Below, one piece after another: positions 11,341 to 63,507 of a stretch of 64,000 bases of DNA (positions are counted from its first letter, which is position 1; each line of letters begins with the position of its first letter). Under the pieces are notes generated by a model. That model did not search any database and was not told the origin of the DNA. It worked only from the letters and a program-made list of their open reading frames with translations. The stretch lies in assembly GCF_044704955.1 (NCBI RefSeq), contig NC_091995.1:17980001-18044000 (forward strand). Reading direction: 5' to 3'. The stretch is from Pristiophorus japonicus (lineage: Eukaryota). The position numbers and the translations under genes were made by a program.

Positions 11341-11354
11341 TGCTAGGGGTAAAG

Positions 11355-12240
11355 CTGTTGCAATACTGTGGCAACAAGAGCAGGTCAGAGGCTGGGTATT
11401 CTGTGGCGAGTGTCTCACCTCGTGACTCGCCAAAACCTTTCCACCACCTACAAGGCACAAGTCAGGAGTGTGATGGAATACTCCACACTTGTCTAGATGA
11501 GTGCAGCTCCAACAACACTCAAGAAACTCAACACCATCCAGGACAAAGCTTCCCGCTTGATTGGCACCCCATCCACCACTTTAACATTCACTCCGTCCAT
11601 CACCGATGTACTGTGGCTGCAGTGTGTACTATCTACAAGATGCGCTGCAGCCATCTTGGTTAATCCTTGCCACTGGACCAAGACCTAGCTCTGTCAAGCC
11701 CGTGCGGTGGCTGGTGTGCAACGGCCACCACACATTAAAAAATCCATGCACAGTCATCTTTCACCCTTCAACATGTAGCTTAGGACCTGAAATATTAGGT
11801 CCTTCATTGAAACACCTGTGAACTCATCCCTTTTTGGCATGCAATCAAGTCATCCTCGATACGAGGGACCACCTATGATGGTCTTGATGATGATGCACTG
11901 CAGCAACTCACCAAGAATTGTTCAGCAGCACCTCTCAAACCTGCGACCTCCAACACATAGAAGGACAATACCAGCAGGCACATGGGAACACCACCAGGTC
12001 CACGTTCCCCTCTTAGTCACACATCATCCTGACTTTGAAGTATATCGCTGTTTCTTCAGTGTCAGTGGGTAAAAATCCTACAACTCCCTCCCCAACAGCA
12101 CTGTGGGAGTACCTTCACCACACGGACTGCAGCGGTTCAAGAAGGCGGTTCACCACCATCTTCTCAAGGGCAATTAGGGATGGGCAATAAATGCTGGTTT
12201 TGCCAGTGACGGCCACATCCCATGAATGAATAAAAAAAAG
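11355..12240 (+). mobile_element. LINE family B 3' part, with a ~240-bp short element (11660-11895, (atg)n tail) inserted
   Basis: Homologous to 3030-3995. The insert is flanked by a duplicated gatgc(g/a)ctgcagc. Confidence 0.75.
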
Positions 12241-22150: not shown

Positions 22151-22975
22151 TGTCGCTCCTCCCACCGAGCTTTCCTGAATTCACTTGCTCATGGTGATCC
22201 ATTCAGCCTCAGTACTAACGAGAAAATAGTCCCTTCGTATTTACGGGATGTTTAAGACAAAACGAACAACTAGATATTAGACTTGCTGTAAATGGGTGGT
22301 CAACGATGTTCTTTCGTGGACCCATCTTTGCATTTAGATAGAGCGCAATGTGTTACTTTCTATTTACACAATGGCAGTGAAATCTAACTTATCATAGATG
22401 TGTTAACCTGCTTATTCCATTATTGGCAAGCTGTAATTTCAAGGCTCTCGTGCTGCTCTCGTTAAGTGGCTGCAATCTTCACCTTGCATACTGTAACTGG
22501 GTTAACGACATGGGCATAGCCCTACCTAAAATGATACACAGCTGAATTTAATGAATATCCTCCATCTATTTACTCTAAAAACAATCATTCTCAGGATATG
22601 GGCTTCACTGGCGAGGCTGCCATGTATTGCCCAACTATAATTGCCCTTCAGAAGGTGTTGGTTGGCCTGCTTCTTCAACCGCTGAGGTGAAGGTGCTCCC
22701 ACCGCGCTGTTAGAGAGGGAGTTCCAGAATTTTGAAAGGAACTGCGATACAAGGTCAAGTCAGGATGGTGTGTGACTTGGAGGAGAACGTGCAGGTGGTG
22801 GTGTTCCCATGTACCTACTGCCCTTATCCTTCAAGGTGGTGGCGGTCGCGGTTTTGGGAGTTCCAATTGATTTAATGGATCATTTATCTATACGGCCAAT
22901 ATTACACCCTACAAAAATCCCATATGATTGCGTGCAATTTCATTCGTAAGAGTATCTCCACCAATCCAAACTTAC

Positions 22976-23326
22976 CTTGGTCACCACGTCTCACGGTCAG
23001 TGTTGTGCCGGTTCCGTATGCTTCACCGATCTCCACAAGCTGCACTCGGCAAAAATAGAACCCTGCATCTCCCGGTTTCAACTGGATTATTCTAATGGAC
23101 GCGGTCTTCCTCTGGCAGAAATCATCTTTACTTGCCCCTAGCAACCTGCCACTGTATTGCGCTGTATTGTTACAAACTTCAATTCCCTCTTTGCAGCCTC
23201 GGTGCCAACTGTAGCTGCCGACACCATCGGTATCCTCATATGTGCAGACCAGTTCCGCTGTCTGCCCCACGGTCTTGGTGAGCGATTGCGGGCTCTGAAA
23301 TACTGTGATATCTCCAACAGTAACGG
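22976..23326 (-). CDS. V(J)-type Ig domain exon of NKp30/NCR3-like gene 2
   Basis: Splice sites cttgtag|CC and G|gtaag, 351 nt, open, phase 1-1. VFQSP...ELVCTY...YSW...YSGRL...DAGFYFCRVQLVEIGEAYGTGTTLTV; collinear with gene 1. Confidence 0.85.
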
Positions 23327-23394
23327 CTACAAGTGGGTAAAACAGACGATATATAAATAAGCTGCACATGTCTTTGCCTTAAAACACGGCGTAT

Positions 23395-25431: not shown

Positions 25432-26940
25432 ATTGGCCATGGATGTCGTCCCAGTTCCAGCGTATCTTTCCCAGCCAGCTTAAGCGTATCTTTCCCAGCC
25501 AGCTCCTCCCAAGCAGCATGGGACCATCGCCTGGTACCACCCAGAGTGGTAGTTTGTGCACCGCTCCATCATAGGAGACCTTTACGGTAGCACTGCCGAT
25601 TACAGGAATCAGTTATTTTGTGTAAGTTCTTAGTTTCGTGCGAATTGGAGTTAAGACTGGCCTTGAGGCCTTGTTGCACCACAACCTTTCGAAAGTCTTT
25701 TTGCCCATGGTGGAATGGCTCGTGCCCGTGTCCAGTTCCATTCACACTGGGAGTCCATTTAGTTCAACATTCATCATTACCGGGGGACAATTCGTGGTGA
25801 ATGTGTGCATCCCATGTGGCTGTGTCTGAGGATCTGGTTCATCGTGATCCTCCATGGATCTGTCCTCCTCTGCAACATGGTAGTTTGCAAGTTTAATAGG
25901 CCTAGCAGCTGGCCTGCACAATTGTTGGAGGTGTCCCATTGTTCCACAGCCCTTGCAAACGTACTCTTTGAATTGGCATGAATGCAATGATGATCCCCCG
26001 CAGCACCAACAAGGTGTTAATGGCCTTGCATTCATCACCCTTGATAGTGGACTCTGAGACATCTGCAGACGTGCAGCTGTAGGCATGTGTAACCTGCCCT
26101 GTATGTTACAATTTGGAAGCAACCTCACTTTGTTCACAATACTTGTAGCAGCATTTGTGTGCTGAATGATTTGCTTCGTATTATCAATGGTGGCAATGAA
26201 CGCCTGGGCTATGGCTATGGCCTAACTCAAGGTTGGGGTCTCGACAGTCAAAAGTTTGTGAAGTATGGTTTTTTGGCCAATGCCAAGTATGGAAAAGTCT
26301 CTGAGCATGTGCTCCAAATGTCCTTCAAATTCGCAATGTCCTGCAAGGCGTGTTAGCTTGACAACATAACTCACCACTTCCTGGCCTTCAGACCTTTTTT
26401 AGGTGTAGAACCGGTAACTCGCCATCAGACCGCTTTCCTTCGGGTTCAAATGCTCTCGGATCAGTATGTACAAATCGTCGTATGATTTCTCCATGGGTTT
26501 CCCTGGAGCGCGCAGATTCTTCATGAGACCATACGTTGGTGCCCCACAGAAGGTGAGGAGGATCGCCCTTCATTTGGCAGCACTCTCTTCCCCAGCTAAC
26601 TCATTGGCCATGAAGTATTGGTCGAGTCTCTCCACAAAGGTTTCCCAATCATCTCCCTCTGAGACTTTCTCCAGGATGCTCACTGTTCTCTGCATCTTTG
26701 CGTTCGCTATCTGTAACTCATCACCAGCTGTTGTATATGGAGAAAGACTCAGACTGAACACTGTGTGCTCAAAGTAAAGTGTGATCTTAGTCTTTTATTG
26801 CAGGTCTCCAGAGTGCCTCTCCAACCTGTGAAGCCTCCTTAAATACCTCTGCTTCCAAGGGATTGTGGGATCCCTTGGGACTCCCGGGGATGAGCCCTCT
26901 GGTGGTTGTACAGAGTAAATACAAGTTTACATATATAACA
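25432..26940 (-). mobile_element. Ty3/Gypsy LTR retrotransposon 5' fragment: LTR 26729-26940, decayed PBS, gag with zinc knuckles, protease
   Basis: TG...CA LTR of 212 bp followed by tggtgatgag (TGGCGACGAG-like PBS). DDWETFVERLDQYF, CKGCGTMGHLQQLC, ELDTG, LLGRSWL. A 24-nt tandem duplication lies at ~25459-25504. Confidence 0.85.
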
Positions 26941-32187: not shown

Positions 32188-33636
32188 ACATAGAAACATA
32201 GAACATAGAAAATAGGTGCAGGAGTAGGCCATTCGGCCCTTCGACCCTGCACCGCCATTCAATGAGTTCATGGCTGAACATTCAACTTCAGTACCCCATT
32301 CCTGCTTTCGCGCCATACCCCTTGATCCCCCTAGTAGTAAGGACCTCATCTAACTCCTTTTTAAATATATTTAGTGAATTAGCCTCAACAACTTTCTGTG
32401 GTAGAGAATTCCACAGGTTAACAACTCTCTGAGTGAAGAAGTTTCTCCTCATCTCAGTCCTAAATGGCCTACCCCTTATCCTCAGACTGTCCCCTGGTTC
32501 TGGACTTCCCCAACATTGGGAACATTCTTCCTGCATCTAACCTGTCTAACCCCGTCAGAATTTTAAATGTTTCTATGAGGTCCCCTCTCATTCTTCTGAA
32601 CTCCAGTGAATACAAGCCCAGTTGATCCAGTCTTTCTTGATAGGTCAGTCCCGCCATCCCGGGAATCAGTGAGGTTATCCACTTTGGTGGTAAAAACAGA
32701 GAGACAGACTATTATCTGAATGGTGACAGATTAGGAAAAGGGGAGGTGCAAAGAGACCTGGGTGTCATGGTACATCAGTCATTGAAGGTTGGCATGCAGG
32801 TGCAGCAGGCGGTTAAGAAAGCAAATGGCATGTTGGCCTTCATAGCAAGGGGATTTGAGTACAGGGGCAGGGAGGTGTTGCTACAGTTGTACAGGGCATT
32901 GGTGAGGCCACACCTGGAGTATTGTGTACAGTTTTGGTCTCCTAACCTGAGGAAGGACATTCTTGCTATTGAGGGAGTGCAGCGAAGGTTCACCAGACTG
33001 ATTCCCGGGATGGCGGGACTGACCTATCAAGAAAGACTGGATCAACTGGGCTTGTATTCACTGGAGTTCAGAAGAATGAGAGGGGACCTCATAGAAACAT
33101 ATAAAATTCTGACGGGGTTAGACAGGTTAGATGCAGGAAGAATGTTCCCAATGTTGGGGAAGTCCAGAACCAGGGGTCACAGTCTAAGGATAAGGGGTAA
33201 GCCATTTAGGACCGAGATGCGGAGGAACTTCTTCACCCAGAGAGTGGTGAACCTGTGGAATTCTCTACCACAGAAAGTTGTTGAGGCCAATTCACTAAAT
33301 ATATTCAAAAAGGAGTTAGATGAGGTCCTTACTGCTAGGGGGATCAAGGGGTATGGCGAGAAAGCAGGAATGGGGTACTGAAGTTGAATGTTCAGCCATG
33401 AACTCATTGAATGGCGGTGCAGGCTAGAAGGGCCGAATGGCCTACTCCTGCACCTATTTTCTATGTTTCTATGTTTCTATGTTTCTATCAGTCTGGTATA
33501 CCTTCGCTGCACTCCCTCAATAGCAAGAATGTCCTTCCTCAGGTTAGGAGACCAAAACTGTACACAATACTCCAGGTGTGGCCTCACCAATGCCCTGTAC
33601 AACTGTAGCAACACCTCCCTGCCCCTGTACTCAAAT
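32188..33636. mobile_element. Young CR1 (minus; 32188-32670 plus 33487-33636) with a same-family CR1 (plus; 32671-33486) inserted in the opposite orientation
   Basis: TSD ATCAGT at 32665-32670 and 33487-33492. The inner copy has an open 211-aa ORF2 C-terminus. (tttctatg)n tails. Confidence 0.9.
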
Positions 33637-34609
33637 GAGAGACAGAGAGAGAGCTTAAGTTGGGGGAGAGTGTGGTAGCTTGGTGTGGGGGAGGGAGAGA
33701 GACGGGTTGGAGAGGGAGAGGGAGCTTGGGGAGGGGGAGAGGGAGCTCGGGGAGAGGGAGGGGGAGCTTGGGGGAGAGAGAGGGAGAGCCCGGGGTGTGG
33801 AGAGAGAGAGTGCTTGCGCGAGGGGAAGAGAGAGAGATAGAGAGAGCTTGTGGGGGAAGAGAGAGAGAGAGCTTGGGGGGGTCGGTGGGGGCTGGAGGAG
33901 AGAGTGAGCTTGTGGGTAGGAGAGAGTGAGAGAGAGAACATGGGGTGGGGGGGTGGTGAGAGAGAGCGAGCAAGCTTGGGGTTGTGGAGAGAGAGAGACA
34001 GTGCTTGGGGGGGGGGGGCGGAGAGAGACAGCCTCGGGGATGGTGGGAGAGAGAAAGAGCTTGGTGGTTGGGAGAGAGCTTCGCAGGGGGAAGAGAGAGC
34101 TTGGGGGATTGGAAGAGAGTCTGGGGGCTGGAGATTGAGAGCTTTAAGGGGGAGAGACCTTGGGGGGGGAGAGAGAGCGAGAACCTGGGGATGGGGGGGG
34201 AGGAGGAGAGAGAAAGAGAGGGCTTAGGAAGGGGGGAGGGAGAATGGGGGGAGAGAGAGAGCCTGGGGGTGGGGTGGGGGGAGGGGGAGTGGAGCGGGAG
34301 CTTGGGGGGGTGGAGAGGGAGCTTGGAGGAGAGAGCGAGTGAGAGCATGGGTGGGGGGGAGAGGAAGCTTGGGGTTCGTGGGAGAGAGGAGGGGAGAGTT
34401 TGGTGGGGGGGTTGAGAGGGCTTGGAGGGTGGGGGGAGAGAGAGAGAGATTGGGGGGAGAGAGAGCGTGCGGGTCAGAAGAGAGAGTTGGGGGGCAAGGG
34501 AGTGAGAGAGGGAATGATTGGGGGGAGAGTGGGCTTGGGGGGGAGAGAGAGAGAGCTTGCAGGAATGTGAGACCGAACTTGGGGGGACAGAGAGATAGAG
34601 TTTGGGGCA

Positions 34610-35279
34610 TGTTAGCGTTAGTGTTTTCTTAGAAGAATCACTCAACACTCAGGGTCAGTTCCAATGCTGAAGCAGCTTTTATTACGCTCAGCGGGAAGGA
34701 AAAACTCAGGACCGTATCCAGGTTTCTCTTCACAGAACAAAGAGTTACATGTACCTTTATATGTTTCACAACAGTTACAACACAGTTTACTGCAGCTACA
34801 CAGCCCATCACGGCTGGACACAAGCCAATCACAATGATTATAGATTACATATAGGTTATTTTAACCCAATAGAATTCCCCTTATGTCTCAGGAACCATGT
34901 GTTCGTCTTTTGTCAGCTTGGGCTGATTGATATAGGTTCTCTCACTAGTTCTTTCTTCTTGGAGAAATAATTGGTATATAGCCTTGTTTACAGCAAATGG
35001 TTTCCCTCTTATCTTTCTTCCTGAAATAATTGGTTTCATGGCCTTGTTCACAGGAGATGGTTTCCTTCTTATCTCTGTCTTCCCAGGCATTCCTACAGTG
35101 GGCCTCACAGGGTTATTGCTCGGTCAGTGAACGTTCAACAGTTCACAGTTTGACTACCTGATTTCCCATAATGCCTGGGCAGCCATTTTATGTGTGTGTC
35201 CATTTAAGCTTATGTGAGTTTTAAATATCCAGCAGGTGCCTAATGCCTAAGTCTATATATATTTCTACTCTCTACAACA
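34610..35279 (-). repeat. 3' LTR
   Basis: Direct repeat of 40207-40876 (offset 5597). On the minus strand, TATAAA at 34761-34756 and AATAAA at 34683-34678. Confidence 0.95.
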
Positions 35280-35292
35280 ATTCCCCCCTTTC
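35280..35292 (-). other. Polypurine tract
   Basis: gaaaggggggaat immediately precedes the TG of the 3' LTR on the minus strand. Confidence 0.85.
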
Positions 35293-35418
35293 GGTAAAGG
35301 GACTAGTCCTAGTCCCCTTTTAACCGACCGTACTGCCTTTATCTGATATTTGTGCACTGCCCGGTACTCCTTGCCTCAACGTGCTGGCCAGTCACGCGGT
35401 TTCAGGAGTCCCGGTTGC

Positions 35419-37522
35419 TTAGATCAAATTAACAAAGGCTAGCTCCTCCCGTCCCCTTATCAAACAGGCTTGTTTAATATCCAGGGAATGGTGATTGGTC
35501 CGTTTCCGCCGTTTGTGGCGCCTGCATACCTGGCAGGCCATCACGCCCCATGTTATTGCTAAGATTAATTGTATTCCGACCAGTGTGTGTGAAATAATTC
35601 GAATCCATGGGTGGATGTTCACATTTATTCCCCAGTCCCAGACCTTTCTCCACCAACTCTGACTTTGTAAGTCTACCTCGGTATCTTCTTTGATTTTAGT
35701 TTGTAGCTGGTGATAGAGTTTTACAGATTGACCCACTCTGAGCCTCAACTCCCGTAATACTTCGGTTAGATGTGGGATAGGGACCTGCTCTGGCTCGTCA
35801 TAATCCTGCAAATGATCATGGAGCTGATCAGTTACTTCAATAACTTCGGACTTCCGGCGCCTAACCTGGGTGATATGCGATTGCCCGATCGTGACAGGTC
35901 GTAGTGGTGTAAAGCAAAAGTTTGGCTGCGGTATAGGGCACTGCAGGTCATTATACTGGTATGAACGCTCAGTAGTAGAGACGCAGTATCTTCCCCTCCC
36001 TCCGTAGCCTGCCCTCGCGAAGTGCATGTGTGCGGGCACTATTTCTAGTACACACCCGTTGGTTCGGTTAAACCCGCACTCGTCTAGTTCCCCTCGGCCC
36101 ACCGGGTGAGGGCATACTGTGATTTCCCCCCTTTGCTTGCAATCTGCTAGGGAAATCCCAGTAAGTATGTTGTTTCGACGAACGGCAGAGGTGGTGGTTA
36201 GGTAGTAGCGTATGGAGACATTTTCCCGTATTACTCCGATATTCTCTAGTTGGTATAAGGGGAACGGCCCTGAGTCCGGCGTTGCTATGGGGATCAACAG
36301 GACTATCCCTATCCCGGTAGTCCTACCCATCTGGCAATCTGGAATTGCGGGGTATACTCGGGTCAGTCCCTTCAGAGTACAATTATCCAGTGTCCCCCTT
36401 TGGTTCGCCAACTGAGCCAAATGTGAACTGTCTATCCAATCGGGTACTTCCCCGCGTTGGATCTGGTCGAGGTTGTGGCGGATCTGTCCCACCATCCACA
36501 GACCATAAGCATGACAGAGTTGCCCCTGTCTTTGCTTTATTGTATCTTCTTGTTCTCTATCAATGAGGTGATTGATGGTTTTAGCGTGAGCTTCCAGGAC
36601 TGAGATGCCATCCAACTGGATTTCGGCACCCTCCTTTCCTAGGTTGGCCTGGTCTTCCTGGTTTTGCTCCACCCTCTCCAATAACCCCTTCATCACCCCT
36701 TTAAGCTGTTCTACCCTCTCATTTAGCCCTTGTATGTCTATCGAGTTCACTACGGAGGTTCCTGTATTGAAAACGGTAGCAACATCATTTACTATTTCCC
36801 TCTTCACCCTGGGTGCTAACCCCTGTCCCCGGAACTTACTGGCACCCATGGCATCGGCAGCCTGCTGCATTACGACTTTACTTAATACATTGTACATCTT
36901 CCTTGACTGTTCGGTACAATATTCCGGCATCTGGATGCCTGAAATATTGATCAGAACAGGCACAATTTCATGTTTAACATTATCATACAATAATTCCCCT
37001 TCGTTGTACATTGCAATCCCATTTTCTGGTCCCTTAGTAGTTATGGGACAAGGCAGTTCTTCGGGCAATGTAGTGATTCTTATGGGGCGCGGTGTCGGAG
37101 GGGGTGAGAAACATACATACAATTATATTGCAGCCGCCCCCGCCTCCTCGTAATACCCACACAGCCCCATTCCCTTCTTGCGGATGACTGATTGCTGGGA
37201 TTGTCCCGGAGGCGCGCAAATTATGCCGAAAGTACATTCATCAGGCCCTTTGACATCCCTCCGTTTAATGCATCTGCTCCTTATACCCGTGGAGCACTGT
37301 ACACATACTCTTATTCTTATTAGGATTCTTATTAAAATAAGTCCTGTCCTTGCTCCAGTCCTTGGCTGCTGGGATGCACATTCCGTCCGTTAAATTAAAC
37401 AAGACTCCATAGTTCATATAGTTGTTTATTTCCAGCGTGCTCTGCTGTCCGTCGGTGTTGCCCAGGGTACGTGCCTGTCGCAGGGCTATCCATATTACGA
37501 GTAGCGCCGTTCGTATTCCCAT
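35419..37522 (-). CDS. env: Envelope / class I fusion glycoprotein. 567-codon open part 35419-37122; the N-terminus from ATG 37522 is separated from it by one frameshift (~37300-37340) and one TAA (37123-37125)
   Basis: Signal-peptide-like MGIRTALLVIWIALRQARTL, furin site RVKR (cut at 36799/36798), fusion-peptide-like segment and heptad repeat, Cys-rich ectodomain with N-glycosylation sequons, Trp-rich juxtamembrane region, TM helix and basic tail. Confidence 0.85.
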
Positions 37523-37610
37523 TCCGGTAAGTATTATCTGTAATTTTAAACAGACGGCCTGGTCGTCACCAGGGGTTAAGTTTTTTTGCTCTACGAGTGT
37601 CCCTGTCACC

Positions 37611-37632
37611 CTGCAAAATCAGAAGCACAAGG
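37611..37632 (-). promoter_or_regulatory. env splice acceptor
   Basis: ccttgtgcttctgattttgcag|G; the first downstream ATG is the signal-peptide ATG (ggaATGG). Confidence 0.7.
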
Positions 37633-40140
37633 TTATAATCGAACCATTTCGAGCTGAATCTGTAGGGCGTGCGCCTGTGTCTTTACCCACTTAAATATTA
37701 CCCAAACTCCTATTATGACCAAGGCCAAAGCTATTCCTCCAAACATCGCTGTCTGCTTTACCGTTAGGTTGGGTTTGTGGACTACACCTACCCACCGTGG
37801 GGTACATTGGCTCTATTGCCAGAGGTGATGGTGCTATGGCTGCGCACTGCACTATCCGTCTAGTCCCGTTATCTCTTCCAGCCTGTTTATCTTAGCTTTT
37901 AACTCTTCAATTTGTTTTATTGAATATCTATTTCTTTATTGTATCAGGCAAGTATTATTACATAAGCTAGTTCTGTTTTTATTTTTGTTTCCTCTGTTAG
38001 GTGAGTCTTTTTTTTTTCCCTATTAAGAAATCCAAATTAATAATGTTCAGTATAAAACGGCTGTCAATGGAAAGGGTTAACTCCTTTCCAGGTTTGTAAG
38101 AAGACCTGATGTCATTACGTGACTTCACGTAATCATCTGAAAAAAAAAGTCTTTGTGCCTTCAAAACTGGCTTCGAAATTAGGAATCCGTTAAACAGCAT
38201 AAATCATTAGAGTAAACTCCAATGTTTTCTTAACTTCTAATTCAAGTACTTGCCAAAGAATTTTTTTTTTTTTAAATTGTTTTAAAACAAGACCACACAT
38301 ACAATAGCAATTTTGTTTACTGAAATTCAATTCTGTTTTTTTTTTATTTCTCTCTTTCTCCTCGTTATCTTCAAAACCCTCCTGCTTGTTTAGACTGTTC
38401 GGGACATTTTTGATAAACACTGTCCATTTTGGAAATCTTTTCAAACTGCATTGAAACTTTTTCATAATTTAAAATTCGAATCCATGTAGAGTGTTTTTTT
38501 ACTTATTCCAATTTTTTTTCTCTTCTAATTAAACCAATATCTTTTTCACAGCAAACATCAACTAGTATTTAGTAAGTTATGTCTTTTTCCATTTAGTCCG
38601 TTACATCTTTTTTTTTTCCTTTCTTCAAATTAGGTTTTGTATTTTACACGGAGGGTTCGTAACTCCATAAAGTTGTTAATTTAAAATCATTTGTTTACTT
38701 TCAAAGTGGCGTCTTTATCTTTTTCTTTTTCTCCATAACTGGAATGAAGTCCATCTTTGAGAGTTTGAGTGCTTTTTCGTTATCTCAAAATGCTCCAGTT
38801 TCAAAGTCGTTACTAAAGCTTGCTGTTTTTTTTTTAACATTTTCCAAAAGTTCCTTTTACACCTTCGCAGATAGCTCGCCACTTGCCCAGGAGTTTGACC
38901 TGATCAGATTTAATTTAATCTTTCTCTTTTTTTTTTAAATCCACCTCAGTATTTCCTGTGCCTTCTCTGAATATCTCAAAATCCCAATTCAAACGTTGTA
39001 ATTTCAATCTTTATTTAAAACTTTTTTTTTAGAAGCTCTTTTTTTTTAAAGCATTCTTTATCTCATTCCGAGACTAAATTTATGTCTTTCAACCCAATCA
39101 ATCATTGCATGTTTTCTTTCGGCAAGTAAGTGAGCATGTCAAATAAATATTTTGCTCAACAAACCTATTCTTTATTTGTTTATTTTCCTAGCTCCGTAAC
39201 TTATCATCCGAATAAATCCACACCTGCGTTTCTAACTTAAATGTCTTAAAACTTCCCACATACAGGACAACATTACAAAGGGTTTAAAAAAAAGACTTTC
39301 ACTCTGTTTCTAAAATAAACAGACACTTGCATTCCTCTTCCAACCAGGCTTTCGGAACATGAAAACATAAAAAATTCATTCTGCAGTCAAAAATCACACA
39401 GACACTTCTCACTCAACGATCAGACATTTACAACAGTCTCTCTTCTTGTTTTGGCCGGCTCTATTTTTGGATCCATGACCTTTCAGGGAATTCGTAGTTT
39501 TATCTAAATAATTCCTCACATAACTAATTCCTGAGGATTCGACCCTGCTTTAATCATTTTTTCAATTAGCTTCTTTTGTTTTTCCGCCAGGTGGCGGGTA
39601 AGCGACCCTTCTGGTCCCCACTCGAGTTTACTTGTTTTCATGGCCATTCCTGGGTAGGACTGGTATCGTTAGGAATCTACTCTCAGAGGTCCGCTTTCTT
39701 TCTAGCGCGACTTGTAGTAAACTGTCTCTTGGCTACTGTCAGGTCACAAGTTCTGCTGTTACACAAACTTATACAATTCTTAAAAACGCGTTTAAGCAAT
39801 TCCCGCAGTGCTCTACATATCCTTAACGACTACCTACCACCGCTCAGCCTGTTGGTCCGACCCTGTTCACAGGTTTGGATTCCGTTAGCCGCTGTACACT
39901 GCTTGGTTCTACCCCGGGGTATTTCAAATTACACTACTGGGTCCGGAAGATGTCTCTCGGTATCACGATCCCACGGTCTAAGTGTGTTCCCTACGCCTAC
40001 TTGGTTCCTGGCCGTCACGTGGGACAAAAGTCCTCTTAATTCAGGCTCAGGCTAGGCGTTTGAGATATTAGACCGTCTCCTCATGTCGATCAACCAGCTT
40101 CCACCTTCCGCACCCTTTATACTTAAAAATTGTTTTTTAT

Positions 40141-40149
40141 ACTCACCCG
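40141..40149 (-). promoter_or_regulatory. Major splice donor of the provirus
   Basis: cgg|gtgagt, about 40 nt downstream of the PBS. Confidence 0.7.
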
Positions 40150-40187
40150 GGTTTTTTTTTCCCAAGGGCGTCCAGCGACTCCGGGAA

Positions 40188-40205
40188 ATCCTGCCGACTA
40201 CGCCA
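40188..40205 (-). other. Primer-binding site, tRNA-Ser
   Basis: TGGCGTAGTCGGCAGGAT, complementary to the vertebrate tRNA-Ser 3' end ATCCTGCCGACTACGCCA, 1 nt after the 5' LTR. Confidence 0.9.
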
Positions 40206-40206
40206 T

Positions 40207-40876
40207 TGTTAGCGTTAGTGTTTTCTTAGAAGAATCACTCAACACTCAGGGTCAGTTCCAATGCTGAAGCAGCTTTTATTACGCTCAGCGGGAAGGAAAA
40301 ACTCAGGACCGTATCCAGGTTTCTCTTCACAGAACAAAGAGTTACATGTACCTTTATATGTTTCACAACAGTTACAACACAGTTTACTGCAGCTACACAG
40401 CCCATCACGGCTGGACACAAGCCAATCACAATGATTATAGATTACATATAGGTTATTTTAACCCAATAGAATTCCCCTTATGTCTCAGGAACCATGTGTT
40501 CGTCTTTTGTCAGCTTGGGCTGATTGATATAGGTTCTCTCACTAGTTCTTTCTTCTTGGAGAAATAATTGGTATATAGCCTTGTTTACAGCAAATGGTTT
40601 CCCTCTTATCTTTCTTCCTGAAATAATTGGTTTCATGGCCTTGTTCACAGGAGATGGTTTCCTTCTTATCTCTGTCTTCCCAGGCATTCCTACAGTGGGC
40701 CTCACAGGGTTATTGCTCGGTCAGTGAACGTTCAACAGTTCACAGTTTGACTACCTGATTTCCCATAATGCCTGGGCAGCCATTTTATGTGTGTGTCCAT
40801 TTAAGCTTATGTGAGTTTTAAATATCCAGCAGGTGCCTAATGCCTAAGTCTATATATATTTCTACTCTCTACAACA
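40207..40876 (-). repeat. 5' LTR
   Basis: Repeat of 34610-35279, followed by the PBS on the minus strand. Confidence 0.95.
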
Positions 40877-41990
40877 GGGCAGAACAGAGAACTTGAGGGT
40901 TGGAAAGAGAGGTGCAGAAGAGTGCGAGAGAGAGCTTGCAGGGGGAGAGTGCTTGGGGAGAGAGAGAGAGAGGCAGAGCCTGGGGAGGGGGCGGGGTGGA
41001 GAGAGCGCATGGCGGGGGAGAGACAGAGCTTGGGGTCGGGGGGGTGAGAGAGAGCTTGGGAAGGAGCGAGAGTGAGAACGAGAGCTTGTGGGAGGGAGAG
41101 ATAGAGCTTGGGAATTAGAGAGACAGGGAGCTTCGGGGGCGAGGAGAGAACGTGAGGGAGAGAACTTGGGCGGGGGGGGAAGAGAGCCTGGGGAGGGCGT
41201 GGAGAAAGAGAGAGAGAGAGAGCTTGGGGTGGGGGGAGAGACAGCCTTCGGGCGTGGTGGGAGAGAGAGAGAGCTTTGGGAGTTGGGAGAGAGCATCTGG
41301 GCACGGTGGGGGTGGGAGGGGTGGAGGGAAGAGAGAGCTTGAGGGGGGAGAGAGCTTGCGGGGGGGGAGAGCTTGCGGGGAGAAAGGGAGAGCCTGGGGG
41401 AGTGTTGGTGGTGAGAGCGAGCTTTGGGGGGGAGGGGGAGATAGCATGCAGGGTGAAGAGAGCTAGTGGGGGAGAGAGCCTGGGTGTGGGAGAAGGGAGG
41501 AGAGAGAGAGGGGGCTTGGGGGGGATGAGAGAACTTGGCGGGGGCAGAGAGAGGGAGAGAGAGCTTGGTGGGGAGAGAGAGAGAAAGCTTGGCGGTGGGA
41601 GAGAGAAAGAGCTTGCGGGGGGAGAGAGTTTGGTGGGCAGGGCAAGAGAGAGCTTGGCGGTGGGGCGGGGGGAGAGAGGGAAAGCTTGAGGCGGGAGAGA
41701 GAGAGAGAGAGAGAGCTATTGGCGGGGGGGAGGTGGGGGGAGAGAGAGCTTGGCGGGGAGGGGTGAGAGAGTGAGAGCTTGCAGGGAGAAAAGAGAGAGA
41801 GAGAGAGCTTGGACCTTGGGGGGAGAGAGAGCTTATGGGGGAGACAGAGCTCGGGGTGTGGGAAGAGAGAGCTTGTGGCGGGGGAGAGAGTTCGGAATTT
41901 GGGGAGGAGAGAGGGCTTGGAGGGGGAGAGAGAGCTTGGGGAGGGGGAGAGGAAGCTTGGGCGAGAGAGAGGGAGAGCCTGGGGGGTGGA

Positions 41991-42118
41991 NNNNNNNNNN
42001 NNNNNNNNNNNNNNNNNNNNNNNNNNNNNNNNNNNNNNNNNNNNNNNNNNNNNNNNNNNNNNNNNNNNNNNNNNNNNNNNNNNNNNNNNNNNNNNNNNNN
42101 NNNNNNNNNNNNNNNNNN
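41991..42118. other. Assembly gap (128 N)
   Basis: Run of n. Confidence 1.
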
Positions 42119-44326: not shown

Positions 44327-46285
44327 GAAACATAGAAACATAGAAAATAGGTGCAGGACTAGGCCATTCGGCCCTTCGAGCCTGCACCACCATTCAATAA
44401 GGTCATGGCTGATCATTCCCTCAGTACCACTTTCCTGCTTTCTGTCCATATCCCTTGATCCCTTCAGCCGTAAGGGCCATATCTAACTCCCTCTTGAATA
44501 TATCCAATGAACTGGCATCAACAACTCTCTGTGGTAGGGAATTCCACAGGTTAACAACTCTCTGAGTGAAGAAGTTTCTCCTCATTTCAGTCCTAAATGG
44601 CCTACCTCTTATCCTCAGACTGTCCCCTGGTTCTGGACTTCCCCAATATTGGGAACATTCTTCCCACATCGAAACTGTCCAGTCCCGTCAGAATCTTATA
44701 TGTTTCTATGAGATCCCCTCTCATCCATCCAGTGTATAAACTCCAGTGTATAAAGGCCCAGTTGATCCAGTCTCTCCTCATTTGTCAGTCCAGCCATTCC
44801 GGGAATCAGTCTGGTGAAACTTTGCTGCACTCCCTCAATAGCAAGAACGTCCTTCCTCAGATTAGGGGACCAAAGCTGAACACAGTATTCCAGGTGAGGC
44901 CTCAACAAGGCCCTGTACAATTGCAGTAAGACCTCCTGATCCTACACTCAAATCTCCTAGATATGAAGGCCAACATACCATTAGCCTTGTTCACCGCCTG
45001 CTGTACCTAAATGCCAACTTTCAATGGCTGATGAACCATGACACCCAGGTCTCGTTGCACCTTCCCTTTTCCTAATGTGCCGCCATTCAGATAATATTCT
45101 GCCTTCGTGTTTTTGCCCCCAAAATGGATAACCTCACATTTATCCACATTATACTGCATCTGGCTTGCATTTGCCCATGCACCTAACCTGTCCAAGTCAC
45201 CCTGCAGCCTCTTAGCGCCCTCCTCAAAGCTCACACTGCCACCCAGTTTAGTGTCATCTGCAAACTTGGAGATATTACACTCAATTTCTTCATCTAACTC
45301 ATTAATATATGTTGTAAAGAGCTGGGGTCCCAGCACTGAGCCCTGTGGCACTGCCTGCCATTCTGAAAAGGACCCGTTTGTCCTGACTCTCTGCTTCCTG
45401 TCTGCCAACCAGTTCTCTATCCACGTCAGTACATTACCCCCAATACCATGTGCTTTGATTTTGCACACCAATCTCTTGTGTGAGACTTTGTCAAAAGCCT
45501 TTTGAAAGTCCAAATACACCACATCCACCTGTTCTCCCTTGTCCACTCTACTAGTTACATCCTCAAAAAATTCCAGAAGATTTGTCAAGCATGATTTCCC
45601 TTTCATAAATCCATGCTGACTTGACCGATCATGTCACTGCTTTCTAAATGCGCTGCTATTTCATCTTTAATAATTGATTCCAACATTTTCCCCGCTACTG
45701 ATGTCAGGCTAACCGGTCTATAATTGCCCATTTTCTCTCTCCATCCTTTTTAAAAAAGTGGTGTTACATTAGCTATCCTCCAGTCCATAGGAACTGATAT
45801 GGAGTTGATAGACTGTTGGAAAATGATCACCAATGCATCCACTATTTCTAGGGCCACTTCCTTAAGTACTCTGGGATGCAGGCAATCAGGCCCCGGGGAT
45901 TTATCAGCCTTCAATGCCATCAATTTCCCGAACACAATTTCCTACCTAATAAGGATATCCTTCACGTTCTCCTTCTCACTAGACCCTCAGTCCCCTCGTA
46001 TTTCCGGAAGATTACTTGTGTCTTCCTTCGTGAAGACAGAACCAAAATATTTGTTCATCTGGTCTACCGTTTCTTTGTTCCCCATTATAAATTCACCTGA
46101 ATCTGACTGCAAGGGACCTACGTTTGTCTTCACTAATCTTTTTCTCTTCACATATTTATAGAAGCTTTTGCAGGCAGTTTTTATGTTCCCAGCAAGCTTC
46201 CTCTCATATTCTATTTTCCCCCTCTTAATTACACCCTTTGTCTTCCTCTGCTGAATTCTACATTTCTCCCAGTCCTGAGGTTCGC
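44327..46285 (-). mobile_element. CR1 LINE, ~2-kb 3' part including the RT domain
   Basis: KSPGPD..HPRVLKE, YLDFQKAFDKV, VPQGSVLGP, KFADDTKL, (tttctatg)n tail. Confidence 0.95.
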
Positions 46286-47627
46286 TGCTTGGAGGAGGGA
46301 GCTTGGGGGGGAGAGAGAGAGCTTAGCGGGAGGAGAGAGAGAGAAAGCTGTGGGGAAGGGGGGATTATAGAGAGCTGGGGGGGTGAGAGAGAGGGCTTAG
46401 TGGGGGGGGGAGAGAGAGCGAGAGAGAGCTTGGGAGGGATAGAGGGGGGTGGTGAGAGAGAGAGTTTGGAGGGAGAGAGAGAGCTTGGGGGGGAAGAGAG
46501 AGAGCTTGAGGGGATAAGGGAAAGAGCTTGCGGGGTGGGGGGAGAGAGATCTTGGGGATAGAGAGAGAGAGAGCTTGAGAGGGATAGAGAGCTGGGAGGA
46601 GGGAAGAGAGAGTGCTTGGAGGGGGAGAGAGAGTGGTGGGGGAGAGAGAGAGAGCTTGAGGGGGCAAGAGAGGGAGGGCATGGGGGGAATAAAGAGAGAG
46701 AGCTTGGGAGGGATAGAGAGCTGGGCGAGGGAAGAGAGAGAGCTTGGAGGGGGGAGAGAGAGCTTGGGGGGGAAGAGAGCGAGTGCTTGAGGGGGCAAGA
46801 GAGGGAGAGCTTGGGGGGAAGAGAGAGAGAGCTTTGGTGGGGGGGAGAGAGAGAGCTTTTGGGGAGAGAGAGCTTGGGGAGAGAGAATTGGCAGGGGGGA
46901 GAGAGAGAGGGAGCTTGGTGGGAGGTTGTAGAGAGAGAGAAAGAGAGAGCTTTGGTGGGAGAGAAAGAGTGGGTTTGGTTGGGAGGGGGGGGAAAGACAG
47001 CCTGGAGGGTGGAGGCAGAGAGAGAAAAAGAGCTTGGAGCGGGTGAGAGAGAGAGAGAGAGAGAGCTTGATGGGGAGAGACCTTGTGGGGGAGAGAGAGG
47101 GAGCTTGGGGAGGGAAAGAGAGCTGGAGGTGGGTGGGTGGAGAGGCAGCCTGGGGGTTGGGGGGAGAGAGAAAGAGAGAGAGCTTGTGAGGGAGAGAGAG
47201 TTTGGCAGGGGGGCGAGAGAGCAAAGGCCAAAGTCTCCCACAAGTGAAGCTGTTCCTCTGATTTTACATTTTAAAACCCCAGAACAGTACCCCTTACTGC
47301 GTGTCACAGTTCCCTTCTACACAGTCAAGACATCAGTGAAAACGGCTTCTTAACACACGGTTTGGTTCCACAAGACATTAAAAAAAAACACTGCGCACAT
47401 CGCACCATACAGCATTGACAGGTGGTAACACACTACAAAAATAACAACAGCGCACATCGCACAATACATAGTGTGAAACTCTAACCAGAATATACAATAC
47501 ACTTGCTTACAGAACTTTGGTACATTACAAATTTTAGCAGGGAGGAACCATCATCAACGTACATCAATTACACCTCTCCGAGTCGATCTAACACCCCTTG
47601 CCACTGAGCTTGGAGCATCTGGCTCTA

Positions 47628-49500
47628 TCACCTGCAGCTGGTGTAAAACAAGTAGCCTTCAAGCAACAATTGTATGATAACCAATGCATGGGAACAGACG
47701 CAGATCCAGGGAGGAATCTCTACACTCAGACCAATATCCCACCACGGTGGCGAGACAATCCCCTCGATCTCCTCCCCCAGTTCTACTGTCTTTTGCTCTA
47801 AAGTGTAAAAATGTTTCTGGGAGAGCTCAACGGTCTTTACTAACTCAGTGAGGTGTTCCGGCAGAAAAGGGATCAGGTACCCGAAATGTTCCACATAGTC
47901 CTGGAGATGCCTTTACAGTGATGGGAATTGTAGTGAGGATGCTGGTAATGGGCGGGTCACCCCAGCCAGTACCGATATACAGGGTTGAGAATATCGGGGT
48001 AATTCGTGGAGGAGTGCATGTTTGTTTTAAAGTCGAGGGTTCGGGGATGGGAGTAATTCGTTCTTGTGCCACTTGAACCTCAGCCCTGGGTTTGAAACAA
48101 AAGCTGCTGTCACTCACTGGACACCACATGTCCTGGCTGTACCAGTAGTGGAGCGCACATGTGGTGACACAGTATGTTCCACTCCCCATGTATGCTACCT
48201 GTGGAGGTACGTCACCTGGTGCCATCACTTCCATGGTGCAATTGATAGGTTCTGCGCCTGCAGAAGCAAACCCACCTTCTGATCAGGCAAAAGCAGTCAA
48301 GTGCTGGGGACACAGTATTACATGTGCACCCCGGCTCTGGCATCCAGAGAGGTCAGTGCCTGTCATAGCATGCTCCCACTTTATGACATATGGCGGGACC
48401 ACTTTAAAACAAACATGCACTCCTCCACGAATTACCCCGATATTCTCAACCCTGTACACCAGTGCTGGCTGGGGTGACCCACCCATTACCGGTATCCTCA
48501 TTACAATTCCCATCACTGCATGGTTGGACTGCCCACAATTTACAGGCACAGGGTAGGCTTCAGAGGCTAAACGAAGCTGGCACGGGCTCAATGACTTGCT
48601 ATACGGGTGCAGCGCGGCAAGATGCTTGTTGCTTATCCATGAAGGGACGCAGCCTTGCCTCAGGTCCTCCAGGTTGCTGCGGCCCTCGTCCAGCAACCAT
48701 GCTCCATACAACACACACCTCATTCCGCGCAGCCTGCTCCGGGGCGTTCCTGTCCTCCCATATCAAGTTTTAGCATGCCTCTTCAGCTCCGCAATGACCT
48801 CCTTTAAATAAATGGTCATTGCCTGGTCCTCATGAAGCTCTGGACCCACCACTGTATTCCCTTCCCCTAGAATCTTACACAGTTGGTTCCTTAACTCAGT
48901 GATCTGCATCTGGAGTTGTACATCATCCATACTATTAATAATACCTGTTCCAGTACTGAACGCTGTGGCTACATCATTCCAAGTCCTTCTTCTCTGCCTC
49001 CCGGACCGCATACTATTCCCAACATTCAGATCATAAAGCTGTTTATTATCTACATTTCCATAGTCCAGTTCATAAAATTCCTGAAACAATACTTCTAACA
49101 GAGCTTCATAAAGCTTCTCCGTCTTCTTCGGGGACCACACAGGCAGGTGGACTTCAGTCAGGCTCAGGATCACGGATGCCACGGAGTAGTGCACGTTCTG
49201 AAACAAAGCTTTGTCAGTAGGGATTAACACCAACCCATTCCCTTGACCCCTAGTGGTGGTGGGACACCTATCTACAGTCGGCTGTAGCATCGGGGCCCTG
49301 GGCGGGGGCTTCCTGGTGTATGAGATGAGCTCTGTGGCATTGATGGTGTTCGGGGGATTTGGGATCACACAGGAGTCCACACTCTGATCCCAACCAATCC
49401 CACTCCCGGCATCCTGCCATCACCTCCTAAACACGATCGACACACCAGTTGGGCAGATCTTTTCCGACCCCCACATACACACATAAATCCCTTCCTCCAT
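47628..49500 (-). pseudogene. env: Second, diverged env of the same fusion-protein family, fragmented
   Basis: RQRRRTWNDVATAFSTGTGIINSMD vs RVKREIVNDVATVFNTGTSVVNSID; YRVENIGVIR vs YQLENIGVIR; YCVTT..SFCFKP vs YCVST..NFCFTP; PWICVCSHALVIIQLLL vs PWIRIISHTLVGIQLIL. Confidence 0.85.
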
Positions 49501-49674
49501 TTGGGATCTTTCACCAGAAGCGGTGTCCATTACTGATTTACACCCCTTAAACCCACGTCCTGCCGTGGTCACCATAGTTGTAAGCGGTTTTGATCCTAGC
49601 CTAATTGCTAGACGGACGGTTCGAATCGCCCCCGCCTTACGAAAGTTCTAGACCCGGGAATTATTATTCAGAGT

Positions 49675-50662
49675 GTAAATGAAATGAGTCACGGACAGGA
49701 ATGCTTCAGTGAAAAATCGTACTTATATTTATTTGGTCTAACATACACTGACTAAAACATGCACTACTAAACAAAATCACTGTCTCTGTGCAGAATAAAA
49801 TCCAGGTTACAAACAACATACATACAGTACAGAAATGAGACCAAGTAACATGCAGTAATTCTCTAGTGGATTCTAACTTCACCCCCACCAATGAATTACC
49901 CAGTCGAAGCTTCCTCCCCAGAATTGCCCTGAGAAGATTCACTTCTGAGGAAACCCTGAGCCCTTAGTCTCACCCAGCTTGGGACGCTCGCGATTATGCT
50001 CACCACTACACACACAGTTGGTTTCCTCGCTCAGCTCAGCTGTGGGCAGTTACTGCCTGCTGGTTTTCAGTCTTGGTGGCTTTGTCTGTGGAACTGCGGC
50101 TTCTTCCTCTGGTACATCGATATTGGTGGAGCGAGAGTGAGAGGGAGAGAGAGCCCTCTCTAGATACAAGCTGCAAGCTCCAAGCTTCACTCCAAGCTCC
50201 AAGCTAAAAATAAAGTGGAAAGATCCTGTCTTTATGGGAGTCTTGCTATCCCTATCTTTCCCGTCAATCTTTAAAATCCCTTTGCTTCTAAGCACGAGTA
50301 CTTAGTCAGTGATGGGCTATTCAACCCATGTGTATTGGACTGATGGCCCTTAATCTGGGCATCTCTCCGAGTCTTTGTGTTGGGAAAGACCCGGCTCCTC
50401 TTTGGCTGGCCAAGCTAGCGGGTTCATTGTTCTGTTTTCCTTCTGAGATGGAGGTGAGAAGTTCTTTTGCATATTAGAGTGGCTTTGTCAGTGCCCCCCC
50501 TTCCTGGCCGACAGTTCTTTTGTCAATGGAAGACTGACAGTTCTTTTGTCACATCTAAATGCCATGCGGTCTCTGGAGTTTTAACAAAAACCAACACAGG
50601 GAAAATACCCTCAGAAAAATAAAATCCACGAAATATTCTCGACTGAGTTCATTCTTTAAACA
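49675..50662 (-). mobile_element. Possible LTR-like sequence next to env copy 2
   Basis: TGT...ACA ends and a minus-strand AATAAA near the left end. No PBS, TSD or partner LTR found. Confidence 0.3.
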
Positions 50663-53600
50663 GAAACTTTGTGATCTCTTCAGGAGAGAGCTGGGGGGGT
50701 TGGGGGGTGGGGGGGGGGGGAGAGAGCGCTTTGAGAAATTGAGGGGTGGGGAGAGAGAGGTTGGGGGGCGGGGAAGAGAGCGAGATTTGGGAGAGAGCGA
50801 GAGCTTGGGGGAAGGGAGAGCTTGGGGAGAGGAAGAGAGTGAGCTGGGGCGGGGTGGGTGGGAGAGAGACATAGAGCTTGGGTGGAAGAGAGAGCTTGGG
50901 AGGAGTGCACAGAGAGATAGCTTGGGGAGGACAGAGAGCCTGGGGGAGTGGAGGGAGAGAGCTTGTGGGGGTGAGAGAGAGCTTTTGGGGGGTTAAGATA
51001 GAGCGTTAGGGGGGAGAGAGAGGGAGAGCCTAGGTGGGGGGCAGAGAGAGAGAGCTTGGAGGGGGGGGAGGAGAGAGAGAGCTTGGGGGAGGAGAGGTAG
51101 AGAGAGCTTGGGGTGGGACAGAGAGAGAGAGATAGTGAAAGGGCTTGGGCGGAGGAAGAGAGCATGGTGGGGGGGAGAAAGAGCACTTGGGGAGGAAAGA
51201 GAGAGCTTGGGAAGAGAAATAGAGCGAGCTTGGGGGTAAGGGAGAGCTTGGGGGGCGGGGTGGGAGAGAGATATTGGGGGGAAGAGAGAGCATGTCGGGG
51301 GGAGACAGAGGGAGAGCCTGGGGAGGGGAGTCAGAGATACAGAGCTTGGGGGGGGAGAGAGAGAGAGAGCTTGGTGGGGGAGGGCGAGAGAAACAGCCTC
51401 GGGGGTGGGGAGAGAGAGAGAGTGCAAGCTTGGGATGGGAGAGAAAGAGAAATAGAGAGAGAGCTTGGGGCGGGAGGGAGAGAGAGGGCGAGCTTAGGGG
51501 TGGGGAAGAGAGAGGGATAGCTTGGGGTGGTGGAGTGAGAGAGAGCTTGGAAGGGAGCGATTGCTTGTGGGGGAGGGGGGAGAGTGAGCGAGCTTGGGTA
51601 GGAGAGAGAGCTTGGGGGTGGGAGAGAGAGAGAGAGCTTGGGGGGAGAGAGAGAGAGAGCTTGCGGGGGGGTGGGGGGGTGAGAGAGAGAGAGAACTTGG
51701 GGGGAGAGAGAGTTTGGGGGATGGAGGAGAGAGAGCTTGGTGGGGGTGGAAAGAGAGCGAGCTTGGGGCTAAAGAGAGTGAGAGAGCTTAGGGGGTGAGA
51801 CAGAGCATGGGGAAGGGGAAGAGAGGGAAAGCTTGGGGGGGCAGAGAGAGAGAGAGCTTGCGGGGAGATAGAGAGAGAGAGAGCTTGGGGGAGAGGGAGA
51901 GAGACTTTGGGAGATGAGGGAGAGAGAGCTTGGTGGGGGGGAGAGAGAAAGAGAGCATGGGGGGAAGAGAGAGAGCTTGAGGGGTGAGGGAGAGTTTGGG
52001 GGTGGTAAGACAGAGCATGGGGGGCAGAGAGAGGGAGAGCCTGTGTGGGGGGGACAGAGAGAGAGAGATAGTGAGAGAGCTTGTGATGGAGGGAGAGAGC
52101 TTGGAGGACAGAGAGAGAGCTTGGGGGGAGAAAGAAGAGAGAGCTTGGGGGTAAGAGACAGCTTGGGGAAGGGGAGAGAGGGAGCTTGGGGAGGGAGACA
52201 GAGAAAGAGAAAGAGAGAGCTTGGGGAAAGAGAGAGCTTGGGGACAGGAGGAGAGAGAGAGAGAGCTTGGGAGGACAGAGTTTCGGGGGAAAGAGAGAAC
52301 TTGCGGGGCGGAGCACAGAGGAAGAGCTTGGCGGGGACAGAGAGCCTGAGGGTGGAGAGAGAGAGAGAGCTTGAGCTTGCGGGGGGTGGGGGGGAGAAGG
52401 TGGAAGCTTTGGGGGAGAGAGAGTTTGGGGGATGGAGGAGAGAGAGCTTGGGTGGGGGGGGGGGAAAGAGAGAGCTAAGGTCTAAAGCGAGTGTGAGAGA
52501 GAGCTTAGATGGTAAGACAGAGCATGGGGGTGGGGGGAGAGAGGGAGAGCGTGGGGGAGAGAGAGACTTTGGGAAATGAGGGAGAGAGAGCTTGTTGGGG
52601 GAGAAGAGAGAGAGAGCTTGGGGAGGAAGAGAGCTTGAGGGGTGAGAGAGAACTTGGGGGGAAAGACAGAGCATGGGGAGGGGGCGGGGAGAGAGAGGGA
52701 GAGTCTGGGGGGGCAGAGAGAGAGAGAAAGCTTGGGTTGATGGTGGACAGAGACAGCTTGGGGTGGGACAGAGAGAGAGAGAGATAGTGAGAGAGCTTGG
52801 GACAGAGGGAGAGATCTTGGGGGGCAGAGAGAGAGCTTGGGGGGGAGAAAGAGAGAGCTTGGGGGTAAGAGAGAGCTTGGGGGCAGGAGAGAGCCCGGGG
52901 AGGGGGGGGGGCAGAGTGAGAGAGCTTGGGGAAGTGGAGAGAGAGTAAGAGAGAGCTTGGCGGGGGGGGAAAGACAGCCTTGGGGATGGGGAGAGAAAGA
53001 GAGACAGTGAGCGAGAGAGCTTGAGGCGGGAGAGAGAGAGAGTGAGCTATATAGAGAGAGTGCTTGGGGCGGGAGGGAGAGAGAGAGAGAGAGAGAGAGA
53101 GCTTGGGGAATGGAGAGAGAGCTTGGCGAGGGGACAAGCGAGAGCTTGCAGGGGGAGAGAGCTTGGTGGGAGGGGGAGAGAGGGAGAGAGAGAGAGAGAG
53201 CTTGGGGCTGGAGAGAGAAAGCGAGAGAGAGCTGCGGGGTGGGGGAGAGAGAGAGCACAGGGGGGGAGTGCGGGGAGAGAGAGCTGGGGGGGAGAGAGGG
53301 AGAGCTTTGGGGGAGAGAGAGAGAGCTTGTGAGGGGGAAGTGTGAGAGAGAACTTGGGTGGTGGAAGAGAGAGCTGGTGGGGAGAGAGCTGGGGGGTGGT
53401 GAGAGAGAGCTTGGGCGGGGAGTGGGAGTGGGGGAGGGGTGGAAATAGAGCCTGGGGATGAGGGGAGAGAGCGAGAGAGAGAGACAGAGGATCTGGGAGG
53501 GAGGGAATGAGAGAGCTTTGGGGTGGGGGGTGAAAGAGAGAGCTTGGGAGGGGGAAGAGAGCATGGGGGGAGGAGGGAAGAGAGAGAGAGAGAGAGAGCT

Positions 53601-63000: not shown

Positions 63001-63507
63001 GAGAGAGAGAGAGCTTGCAGGGGGTGAGAGAGAGAGAGAGAGCATTGGGGGTGAGAGAGAGAGAGAGATCTTGGCAGGGTGGGTGAGAACTTAAAGGGGA
63101 GAGAGAGATAGAGAGCTTGGGGTGGGATAGAGAGAGCTTGGGGGGTGCGGGGAGATACAAGAAGAGAAAGAGCTGCAAGTGCGTGTGAAAGTAGAGCTTC
63201 GGGGGGGTTGAAGAGAGACCCTGTGGGGGGTGGGGGGAGAGAGAGATGGAGAGAGAGATGGAGAGCGAGAGAGCGCTTGGGAGGAGGGAGAGAAAGAGAG
63301 GGAGAGAGAGAGAGCTTGGGGGAGGGGGGAGCGTGGAGAGAGACAGAGAGAGGGAGAGATTGGGAGGGGAGAGAGAGAGGTTGGGGCAGCAGGAGAGAGA
63401 GAGCCTTGGTGTTGGGGGAGAGAAAGAGAGAGAGCTTGGGGCGGGAGACAGAGAGAAAGAGAGAGAGAGCATCAGGGGGGCTGGAGAGACAGAGTCTGGG
63501 GGGATTA

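Follow-up and report, generated by a model that had tools for sequence, protein, structure and literature searches.

An apparently recent shark provirus with a broken F-like envelope gene and no detectable gag or pol

Provirus structure and interior

We analysed a 64,000-nucleotide stretch of the Pristiophorus japonicus genome (NCBI RefSeq assembly GCF_044704955.1, contig NC_091995.1, positions 17,980,001–18,044,000), hereafter the window, whose minus strand carries a provirus with an envelope gene (env) at 34610–40876. The element is bounded by paired long terminal repeats (LTRs), both on the minus strand, the 5′ LTR at 40207–40876 and the 3′ LTR at 34610–35279, each of 670 bp with TG...CA ends. 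The two are identical at 670/670 sites, and not one further base is shared beyond either end. The 5′ LTR contains TATAAA at 40358, AATAAA at 40280, and an internal direct repeat of ∼65 bp (83%). The target-site duplication (TSD), GGGCA, is present on both flanks, at 34605–34609 on the left and 40877–40881 on the right, neither copy being assigned a strand. The chance that two 5-mers from the satellite DNA flanking the element agree is 2.4% (0.024), and the empty site, with the provirus removed, resembles a satellite unit.

The remaining cis signals are also on the minus strand. The primer binding site (PBS; 40188–40205) begins one base past the 5′ LTR, and its 18 nt are complementary to the 3′ end of tRNA-Ser; the match to the tRNA-Ser template printed in the available portion of PMC3299991 is 19 nt. 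The polypurine tract (PPT; 35281–35291), A3G6A2, adjoins the 3′ LTR, giving the junction G6-AAT-TG. The leader, a presumed packaging region, spans 39650–40187 and contains a predicted consensus splice donor GT at 40146. The predicted acceptor (37611–37632) is a pyrimidine tract ending in AG at 37612–37611, likewise a consensus match, and the env ATG at 37522 is the first one past it and the sole ATG in 37620–37500. Leader positions 39882–39847 translate to the N-terminus of gene model P0011, with 12/12 residues matching (score 64, reached by 0/300 shuffles). Since P0011 then continues into env, this leader also occurs at a related locus, where the annotation joins it to env; this carries no implication for the DNA between the two there.

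The element thus combines paired LTRs with TG...CA ends, a TSD within 4–6 bp, a tRNA PBS and a PPT, and is a real retroviral provirus, probably a young one. A first-pass annotation of this DNA had seen no mismatch between the LTRs by eye and had named the same TSD, PBS, PPT and splice signals; alignment of the LTRs (0/670 differing) and the positions above bear it out. Integration was apparently recent, as judged by the identical LTRs, for which zero differences give a 95% upper bound on divergence of 0.45%. Sharks evolve slowly, so this bound leaves room for an integration a few million years old.

Between the leader and env lie ∼2.6 kb, where gag and pol would be expected in an autonomous retrovirus. 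Neither was found there as an open reading frame (ORF); upstream of env the longest sense-strand ORF, measured stop to stop, has 92 codons. Pfam searches matched none of the six interior frames read through their stops (0/6), and for eight short interior ORFs returned no gag or pol family, only weak unrelated matches, the best at E 0.029. PDB sequence searches with three interior ORFs gave nothing retroviral, a protein database search with the interior found 0/2709 candidates (all of 271–863 aa), and an Atlas search gave no usable match. The statement in the first-pass annotation that the gag-pol space holds no long ORF and no reverse transcriptase (RT), integrase (IN) or capsid (CA) motif therefore survives these empty Pfam, PDB and protein database searches.

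Much of the space is a non-coding A-rich block at 37950–39400 on the minus strand, with 40% A and 12% C on the sense strand. It contains 12 A/T runs of at least 7, where 2000 shuffles average 1.6 and never exceed 7; env and the LTR contain none. Codon periodicity is absent from the block (period-3 power 3.66 versus a null of 4.04) and clear in env (6.2 versus 4.08), whose base composition is normal, unlike that of the block. We considered APOBEC-type hypermutation as the source of the block and rejected it: the observed/expected ratios (o/e) of GA (1.11) and TC (0.87) are not depleted, and its dinucleotides carry no editing signature.

The interior is of a length and in a position that would suit a degraded gag and a deleted pol, and captured DNA fits equally well. 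Two env-bearing gene models, P0007 (Chiloscyllium) and P0059, have integrase-like sequence directly upstream of env, by motifs read by eye; that of P0059 has no Pfam match at E 0.05. Read this way, relatives would have had pol next to env. The integrase-like ends of P0007 and P0059 align to the interior no better than to shuffles (193/300 and 124/300 of which reach the score), and a search for longer fused env relatives possibly carrying Gag-Pol returned 0/3213 candidates. A short ATG-initiated ORF on the minus strand (39519–39650), placed where gag would begin, gave empty homology searches. Two motifs near 39620 and 38890 that looked gag-like were unsupported, and we do not call the interior gag. 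Just upstream of the env acceptor, a 37-codon minus-strand ORF with a hydrophobic stretch (37633–37746) has no Pfam match and may be an accessory ORF or chance.

Envelope gene and its relatives

Where the first-pass annotation listed one envelope gene, env sequence is indeed present but is not intact, a frameshift and a stop having divided it into three pieces, all on the minus strand. The first (37331–37522), delimited by pairwise alignment to P0011, comprises the start codon, a signal-peptide-like stretch and the first 64 codons. The frame opened by the ATG at 37522 parts from that of env somewhere in 37308–37331, a frameshift region where relatives are continuous and about four residues longer, and reaches a stop at 37267–37265 after 85 codons. 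The second piece (37126–37308, 61 codons), also aligned to P0011, is the second half of the N-terminal domain; it is in the frame of the env body and is closed by a premature in-frame TAA at 37123–37125. The third is the body itself (35419–37122), 567 open codons without a signal peptide, in which a proline-rich linker is followed by an F2-like part, an RVKR cleavage site (36810–36799, matching RXKR), a helical F1-like part, cysteine-rich beta domains, a transmembrane segment (TM) and a tail. Near 35689 the body has three residues fewer than its relatives. The lesions total one frameshift (after codon ∼64), one in-frame stop and two small in-frame gaps. Among 11 env homologs, the 5 that span the stop position all read through it (5/5), and the 4 that span the frameshift are all continuous. 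No ORF runs intact from signal peptide to TM in this copy.

As far as its sequence tells, then, this proviral copy produces no envelope, barring unusual RNA processing. Because of the frameshift and the premature stop it cannot supply envelope to a partner, and the suggestion in the first-pass annotation that this element does so fails for this copy; at the level of the family such a role is possible. The intact splice signals also raise a function for the host, either by way of a secreted, truncated env peptide or by LTR promoter activity near immune genes. A spliced RNA would encode an 85-codon peptide bearing the signal, and there are immunoglobulin (Ig) V-set exons at distances of 11 and 33 kb. 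However, only ∼43 native residues follow the signal stretch, and the insertion appears too young for selection to be visible; we regard such a function as very improbable.

The named homolog search returned shark gene models in 10 of 11 cases, the closest two from Pristiophorus japonicus itself. These are P0001 at 92% identity and P0011 at 85%, followed by Heterodontus at 65% and Mustelus and Chiloscyllium at ∼60%; close relatives of env were confined to sharks among the homologs found. Both same-clade gene models examined, P0001 and P0011, are truncated or frameshifted (2/2). By contrast with the interrupted env of the window, model P0002 of Mustelus asterias is a continuous 714-aa env, 60% identical; its cluster of 7 member sequences suggests a young multi-copy family in that species, at whose loci the genome would be expected in its complete layout.

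Neither the single env ORF nor a 12-sequence profile gave anything relevant in Pfam or PDB sequence searches, and PF00523 was not matched. A library-wide search found 55 env relatives at E 0.001 or better. Having set aside matches that were mostly chimeras or very short, we built a 46-row env alignment with 45 homologs. Its profile matches foamy virus Env chains (8OZH, E 4.6e-5; 8RM1, E 4.5e-4); 8RM0 and 8RM1 are described as foamy Env structures in the available text of PMC11468914. The AlphaFold2 model from this alignment has pLDDT 73 and pTM 0.52, against pLDDT 31 for an earlier model from 12 sequences. In Foldseek searches it matched paramyxovirus and pneumovirus F proteins (hPIV3 F, E 2.8e-11), and it aligns to Langya F over 327 residues (Z 11.7, root-mean-square deviation 7.1). 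Among predicted viral structures it matched WEHV-1 Env (E 2.1e-11) and WDSV Env (E 1.2e-8); identity in the structure alignments is 13–16%. Atlas features of P0002 scored 0.91 to a Fusion_gly cluster, with recognition below the tool's threshold. By its predicted structure, env is of the F-type, paramyxovirus-F-like fold class.

This fold class does not place the provirus among the retroviruses, since F-type Env is found in lokiretroviruses, foamy viruses and, going by the structure matches, walleye epsilonretroviruses alike; only RT could assign it. Lokiretroviruses are vertebrate elements whose Env resembles paramyxovirus and pneumovirus F, with a signal peptide, an RXKR site, a coiled coil and a TM, according to the available text of PMC7947760, whose main text has 0 occurrences of “shark” and of “Chondrichthyes”. 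The shark env has a cleavage site of that form, RVKR, and a predicted F-type fold, one that foamy virus and epsilonretrovirus Envs have too. It differs in that the lokiretroviruses are defined by RT phylogeny, as sister to other retroviruses, and the shark element has no RT, nor its env ORF a PF00523 match. Foamy virus Env and walleye epsilonretrovirus Env are likewise similar to the shark env, by profile match and by structure match respectively. Fish foamy-like endogenous retroviruses (ERVs), as the available portion of PMC5210030 has it, carry GGGTG at the PPT–LTR junction and mostly a tRNA-Lys PBS, and HERV-S uses tRNA-Ser. The shark element lacks the GGGTG motif, and its PBS is Ser rather than Lys, a feature in common with class III elements such as HERV-S. 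The class III/HERV-S label derives from the PBS and the TSD, and would be settled by RT, through its grouping with spuma-related ERVs, but RT appears to be absent. The env of HERV-S is gamma-type, unlike the F-like env modelled here.

Origin of the provirus

One explanation takes the LTR identity to be misleading: the locus would be a single degenerate provirus of greater age, its LTRs having been equalised by gene conversion or assembly collapse. The window does hold a single copy, in low-complexity satellite and 1.1 kb from an assembly gap of 128 N (41991–42118). The LTR has a CpG o/e of 0.29, like that of nearby old host repeats (0.24–0.29), against 0.70–0.91 inside the element. Decay in place would, however, strike env and interior alike, and here they are sharply different. 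Nor is either of them CpG-depleted (0.70 in both), in contrast to the env of an older proviral remnant elsewhere in the window (0.43), and the element's ends and TSD are perfect. We consider this explanation unlikely.

On balance we favour a reading in which the provirus derives from a shark retrovirus lineage with an F-type env, is non-autonomous and in effect codes for nothing, and was copied by a helper, carrying as a passenger a broken env whose body was recently recombined. It retains cis signals and has lost replication genes, as a helper-dependent ERV does. Because no RT, IN or CA was detected, the provirus in its present form cannot have integrated itself. The A/T runs of the interior point to a long release from coding, which is impossible in place between identical LTRs. 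Given zero LTR differences, the probability that env acquired at least one stop and two indels after integration lies between 0.003 and 0.012 for the two parameter sets assumed, a figure that takes the LTR identity as real and relies on assumed fractions of nonsense changes and indels. Provided that the LTRs are truly identical, env would thus have been already dead, and gag-pol already gone, at the last reverse transcription. The first-pass annotation had called the element non-autonomous and copied in trans, and a broken env between identical LTRs strengthens that view.

In the order of events that we infer, the LTR would drive a genomic RNA in which PBS, leader and PPT are preserved; Gag-Pol supplied by a related helper, whether provirus or virus, would package this RNA; tRNA-Ser would prime reverse transcription, making the LTRs identical; and integration would create the 5-bp duplication. 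The env would have been broken before this last copying and travelled as a passenger. Its body is well preserved next to an unrecognisable interior, so env was functional far more recently than the interior was coding. The element would therefore have gained a fresh 3′ half, env body included, not long ago from a functional relative; recombination with a co-packaged helper RNA is the simplest route, and recombinants of the recKoRV type show that such an exchange can occur.

Several points weigh against this account. The timing argument leans on the assumptions given with its figure. Within the window, which holds a single copy, neither a second element of the same structure nor a helper was seen, and no recombination breakpoint was mapped, parental DNA being unavailable. 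The good state of the env body would also fit selection on env in a lineage without gag-pol. Among 27 differences from P0001 over 383 aligned residues, the env body departs from the outgroup sharks at 5 and P0001 at 18, with 4 unpolarised.

These last points lead to a different history, a long-lived env-only satellite lineage in which gag-pol decayed over helper-driven rounds, env was selected to serve env-less helpers, and this copy lost its env recently. We hold this to be possible but not likely. Its expectations agree with an interior that is unrecognisable and non-periodic beside a strongly periodic env, and with intact splice signals and a P0011 that joins the same leader to env. The env body keeps 167/183 outgroup-invariant columns, polarised at the protein level, and its branch is the shortest in the three-member clade (0.023 versus 0.042 and 0.15 in a 24-row tree); among its 33 differences from P0011, the env body departs from the outgroups at 8 and P0011 at 17, with 8 unpolarised. 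The older F-env remnant, 6.4 kb away, has its env almost directly past a PBS-like motif, although it too has lost the env start and so resembles a plain deletion. On the other side, the env of this copy is dead; both same-clade gene models are truncated or frameshifted; no env-less helper was seen; and recombination with an ordinary helper yields an identical pattern without new biology. We therefore prefer helper recombination, which needs nothing new and sits with two broken same-clade models. A more specific form, a long-lived bipartite shark ERV made of an env-only F-type satellite, its gag-pol space drifted into A-rich non-coding DNA and its env under selection, and env-less Gag-Pol helpers, with this copy recently disabled and the remnant at 47.3–50.7 kb an independent case, strikes us as doubtful.

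Helper-dependent copying itself has precedents. Trans-complementation of defective ERVs is documented, in the available portions of these sources, for CfERV-Fc1(a) (PMC6407205), EAV-HP (PMC4607243), and recKoRV and KoRV-D/E (PMC5696478). The portion of PMC5696478 available describes koala recKoRV as a provirus in which old non-coding retroelement DNA has taken the place of the middle, and KoRV-D/E as retaining LTRs, packaging region, integrase and env, the other genes for independent replication being gone. Defective genomes that retain env are thus not new. Like these koala elements, the shark element appears to be a young helper-dependent provirus; unlike them it has an F-type env and a 5-bp TSD, where they are gammaretroviral with a 4-bp TSD and many copies. 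EAV-HP of chickens and CfERV-Fc1(a) of canids, as far as those sources describe them, are similar in being defective and helper-spread, with stops and frameshifts inherited inside high-identity LTRs. They differ in keeping recognisable viral genes, and their lesions were shown to be common across copies.

We found no published description of this shark env or ERV family among the literature matches listed, which is a weak test of absence. The unnamed shark ERV models share the env family, and P0011 also shares the leader. The available text of 10.1101/2021.11.23.469661, on anamniote Env, covers gamma- and beta-type Env only, and that of 10.1101/2023.10.26.564294 reports F-type env in invertebrate elements. 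The available portions of PMC8672886, PMC10699275, PMC6001957 and PMC12193657 hold nothing bearing on the shark provirus.

Helper-dependent defective proviruses are already well known. On the favoured, helper-copied reading, the value of this one is that a retrovirus lineage with an F-like envelope would have been active in a shark germline so recently that the LTRs of this copy are still identical; the provirus marks where to seek its helper and helps to trace the history of retroviral fusogens as far back as the earliest jawed vertebrates. If env-only copies were instead selected and self-maintaining, this would be a natural two-component endogenous retrovirus, surprising to specialists, and with such a family genome data alone would suffice to test whether ERVs divide labour among themselves.

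Surrounding window

The second F-type env remnant (47300–50680, minus strand) is older, has stops and frameshifts, is 29% identical to the first and falls in a separate clade. Just ahead of its start-less env is ∼1.1 kb of LTR-like DNA with a PBS-like motif starting with TGG near 49574; no gag-pol and no paired LTR was found for the remnant at 47300–50680. Its env contains a 118-bp inverted duplication (93%) at 47916–48033 and 48401–48518. Both proviral elements, together with several long interspersed nuclear element (LINE) fragments, lie in a purine-rich (G/A) degenerate satellite at ∼30950–64000 with a GC skew near +0.78.

Rfam over the window gave three chance-level matches. No tRNA gene was found in the window, and a search of a plasmid collection gave no match. 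The two Ig V-set exons are on the minus strand at 1211–1771 (Pfam E 1.8e-7) and 22905–23378 (E 1.8e-11), have a J-like G-x-G-T end, and presumably resemble receptors of the NKp30/NCR3 type. Also on the minus strand are two further retroelement remnants, one at 25745–26221 with a cysteine/histidine knuckle-like stretch, without a Pfam match, and one at 11047–11580 that matches RT_RNaseH at E 8.8e-8. LINE RT fragments, which we take to be CR1-like, were noted at 32200–33630, 44330–46250 and 63500–64000, with nested inverted near-identical copies (95–99%) at 32.2–33.6 kb.

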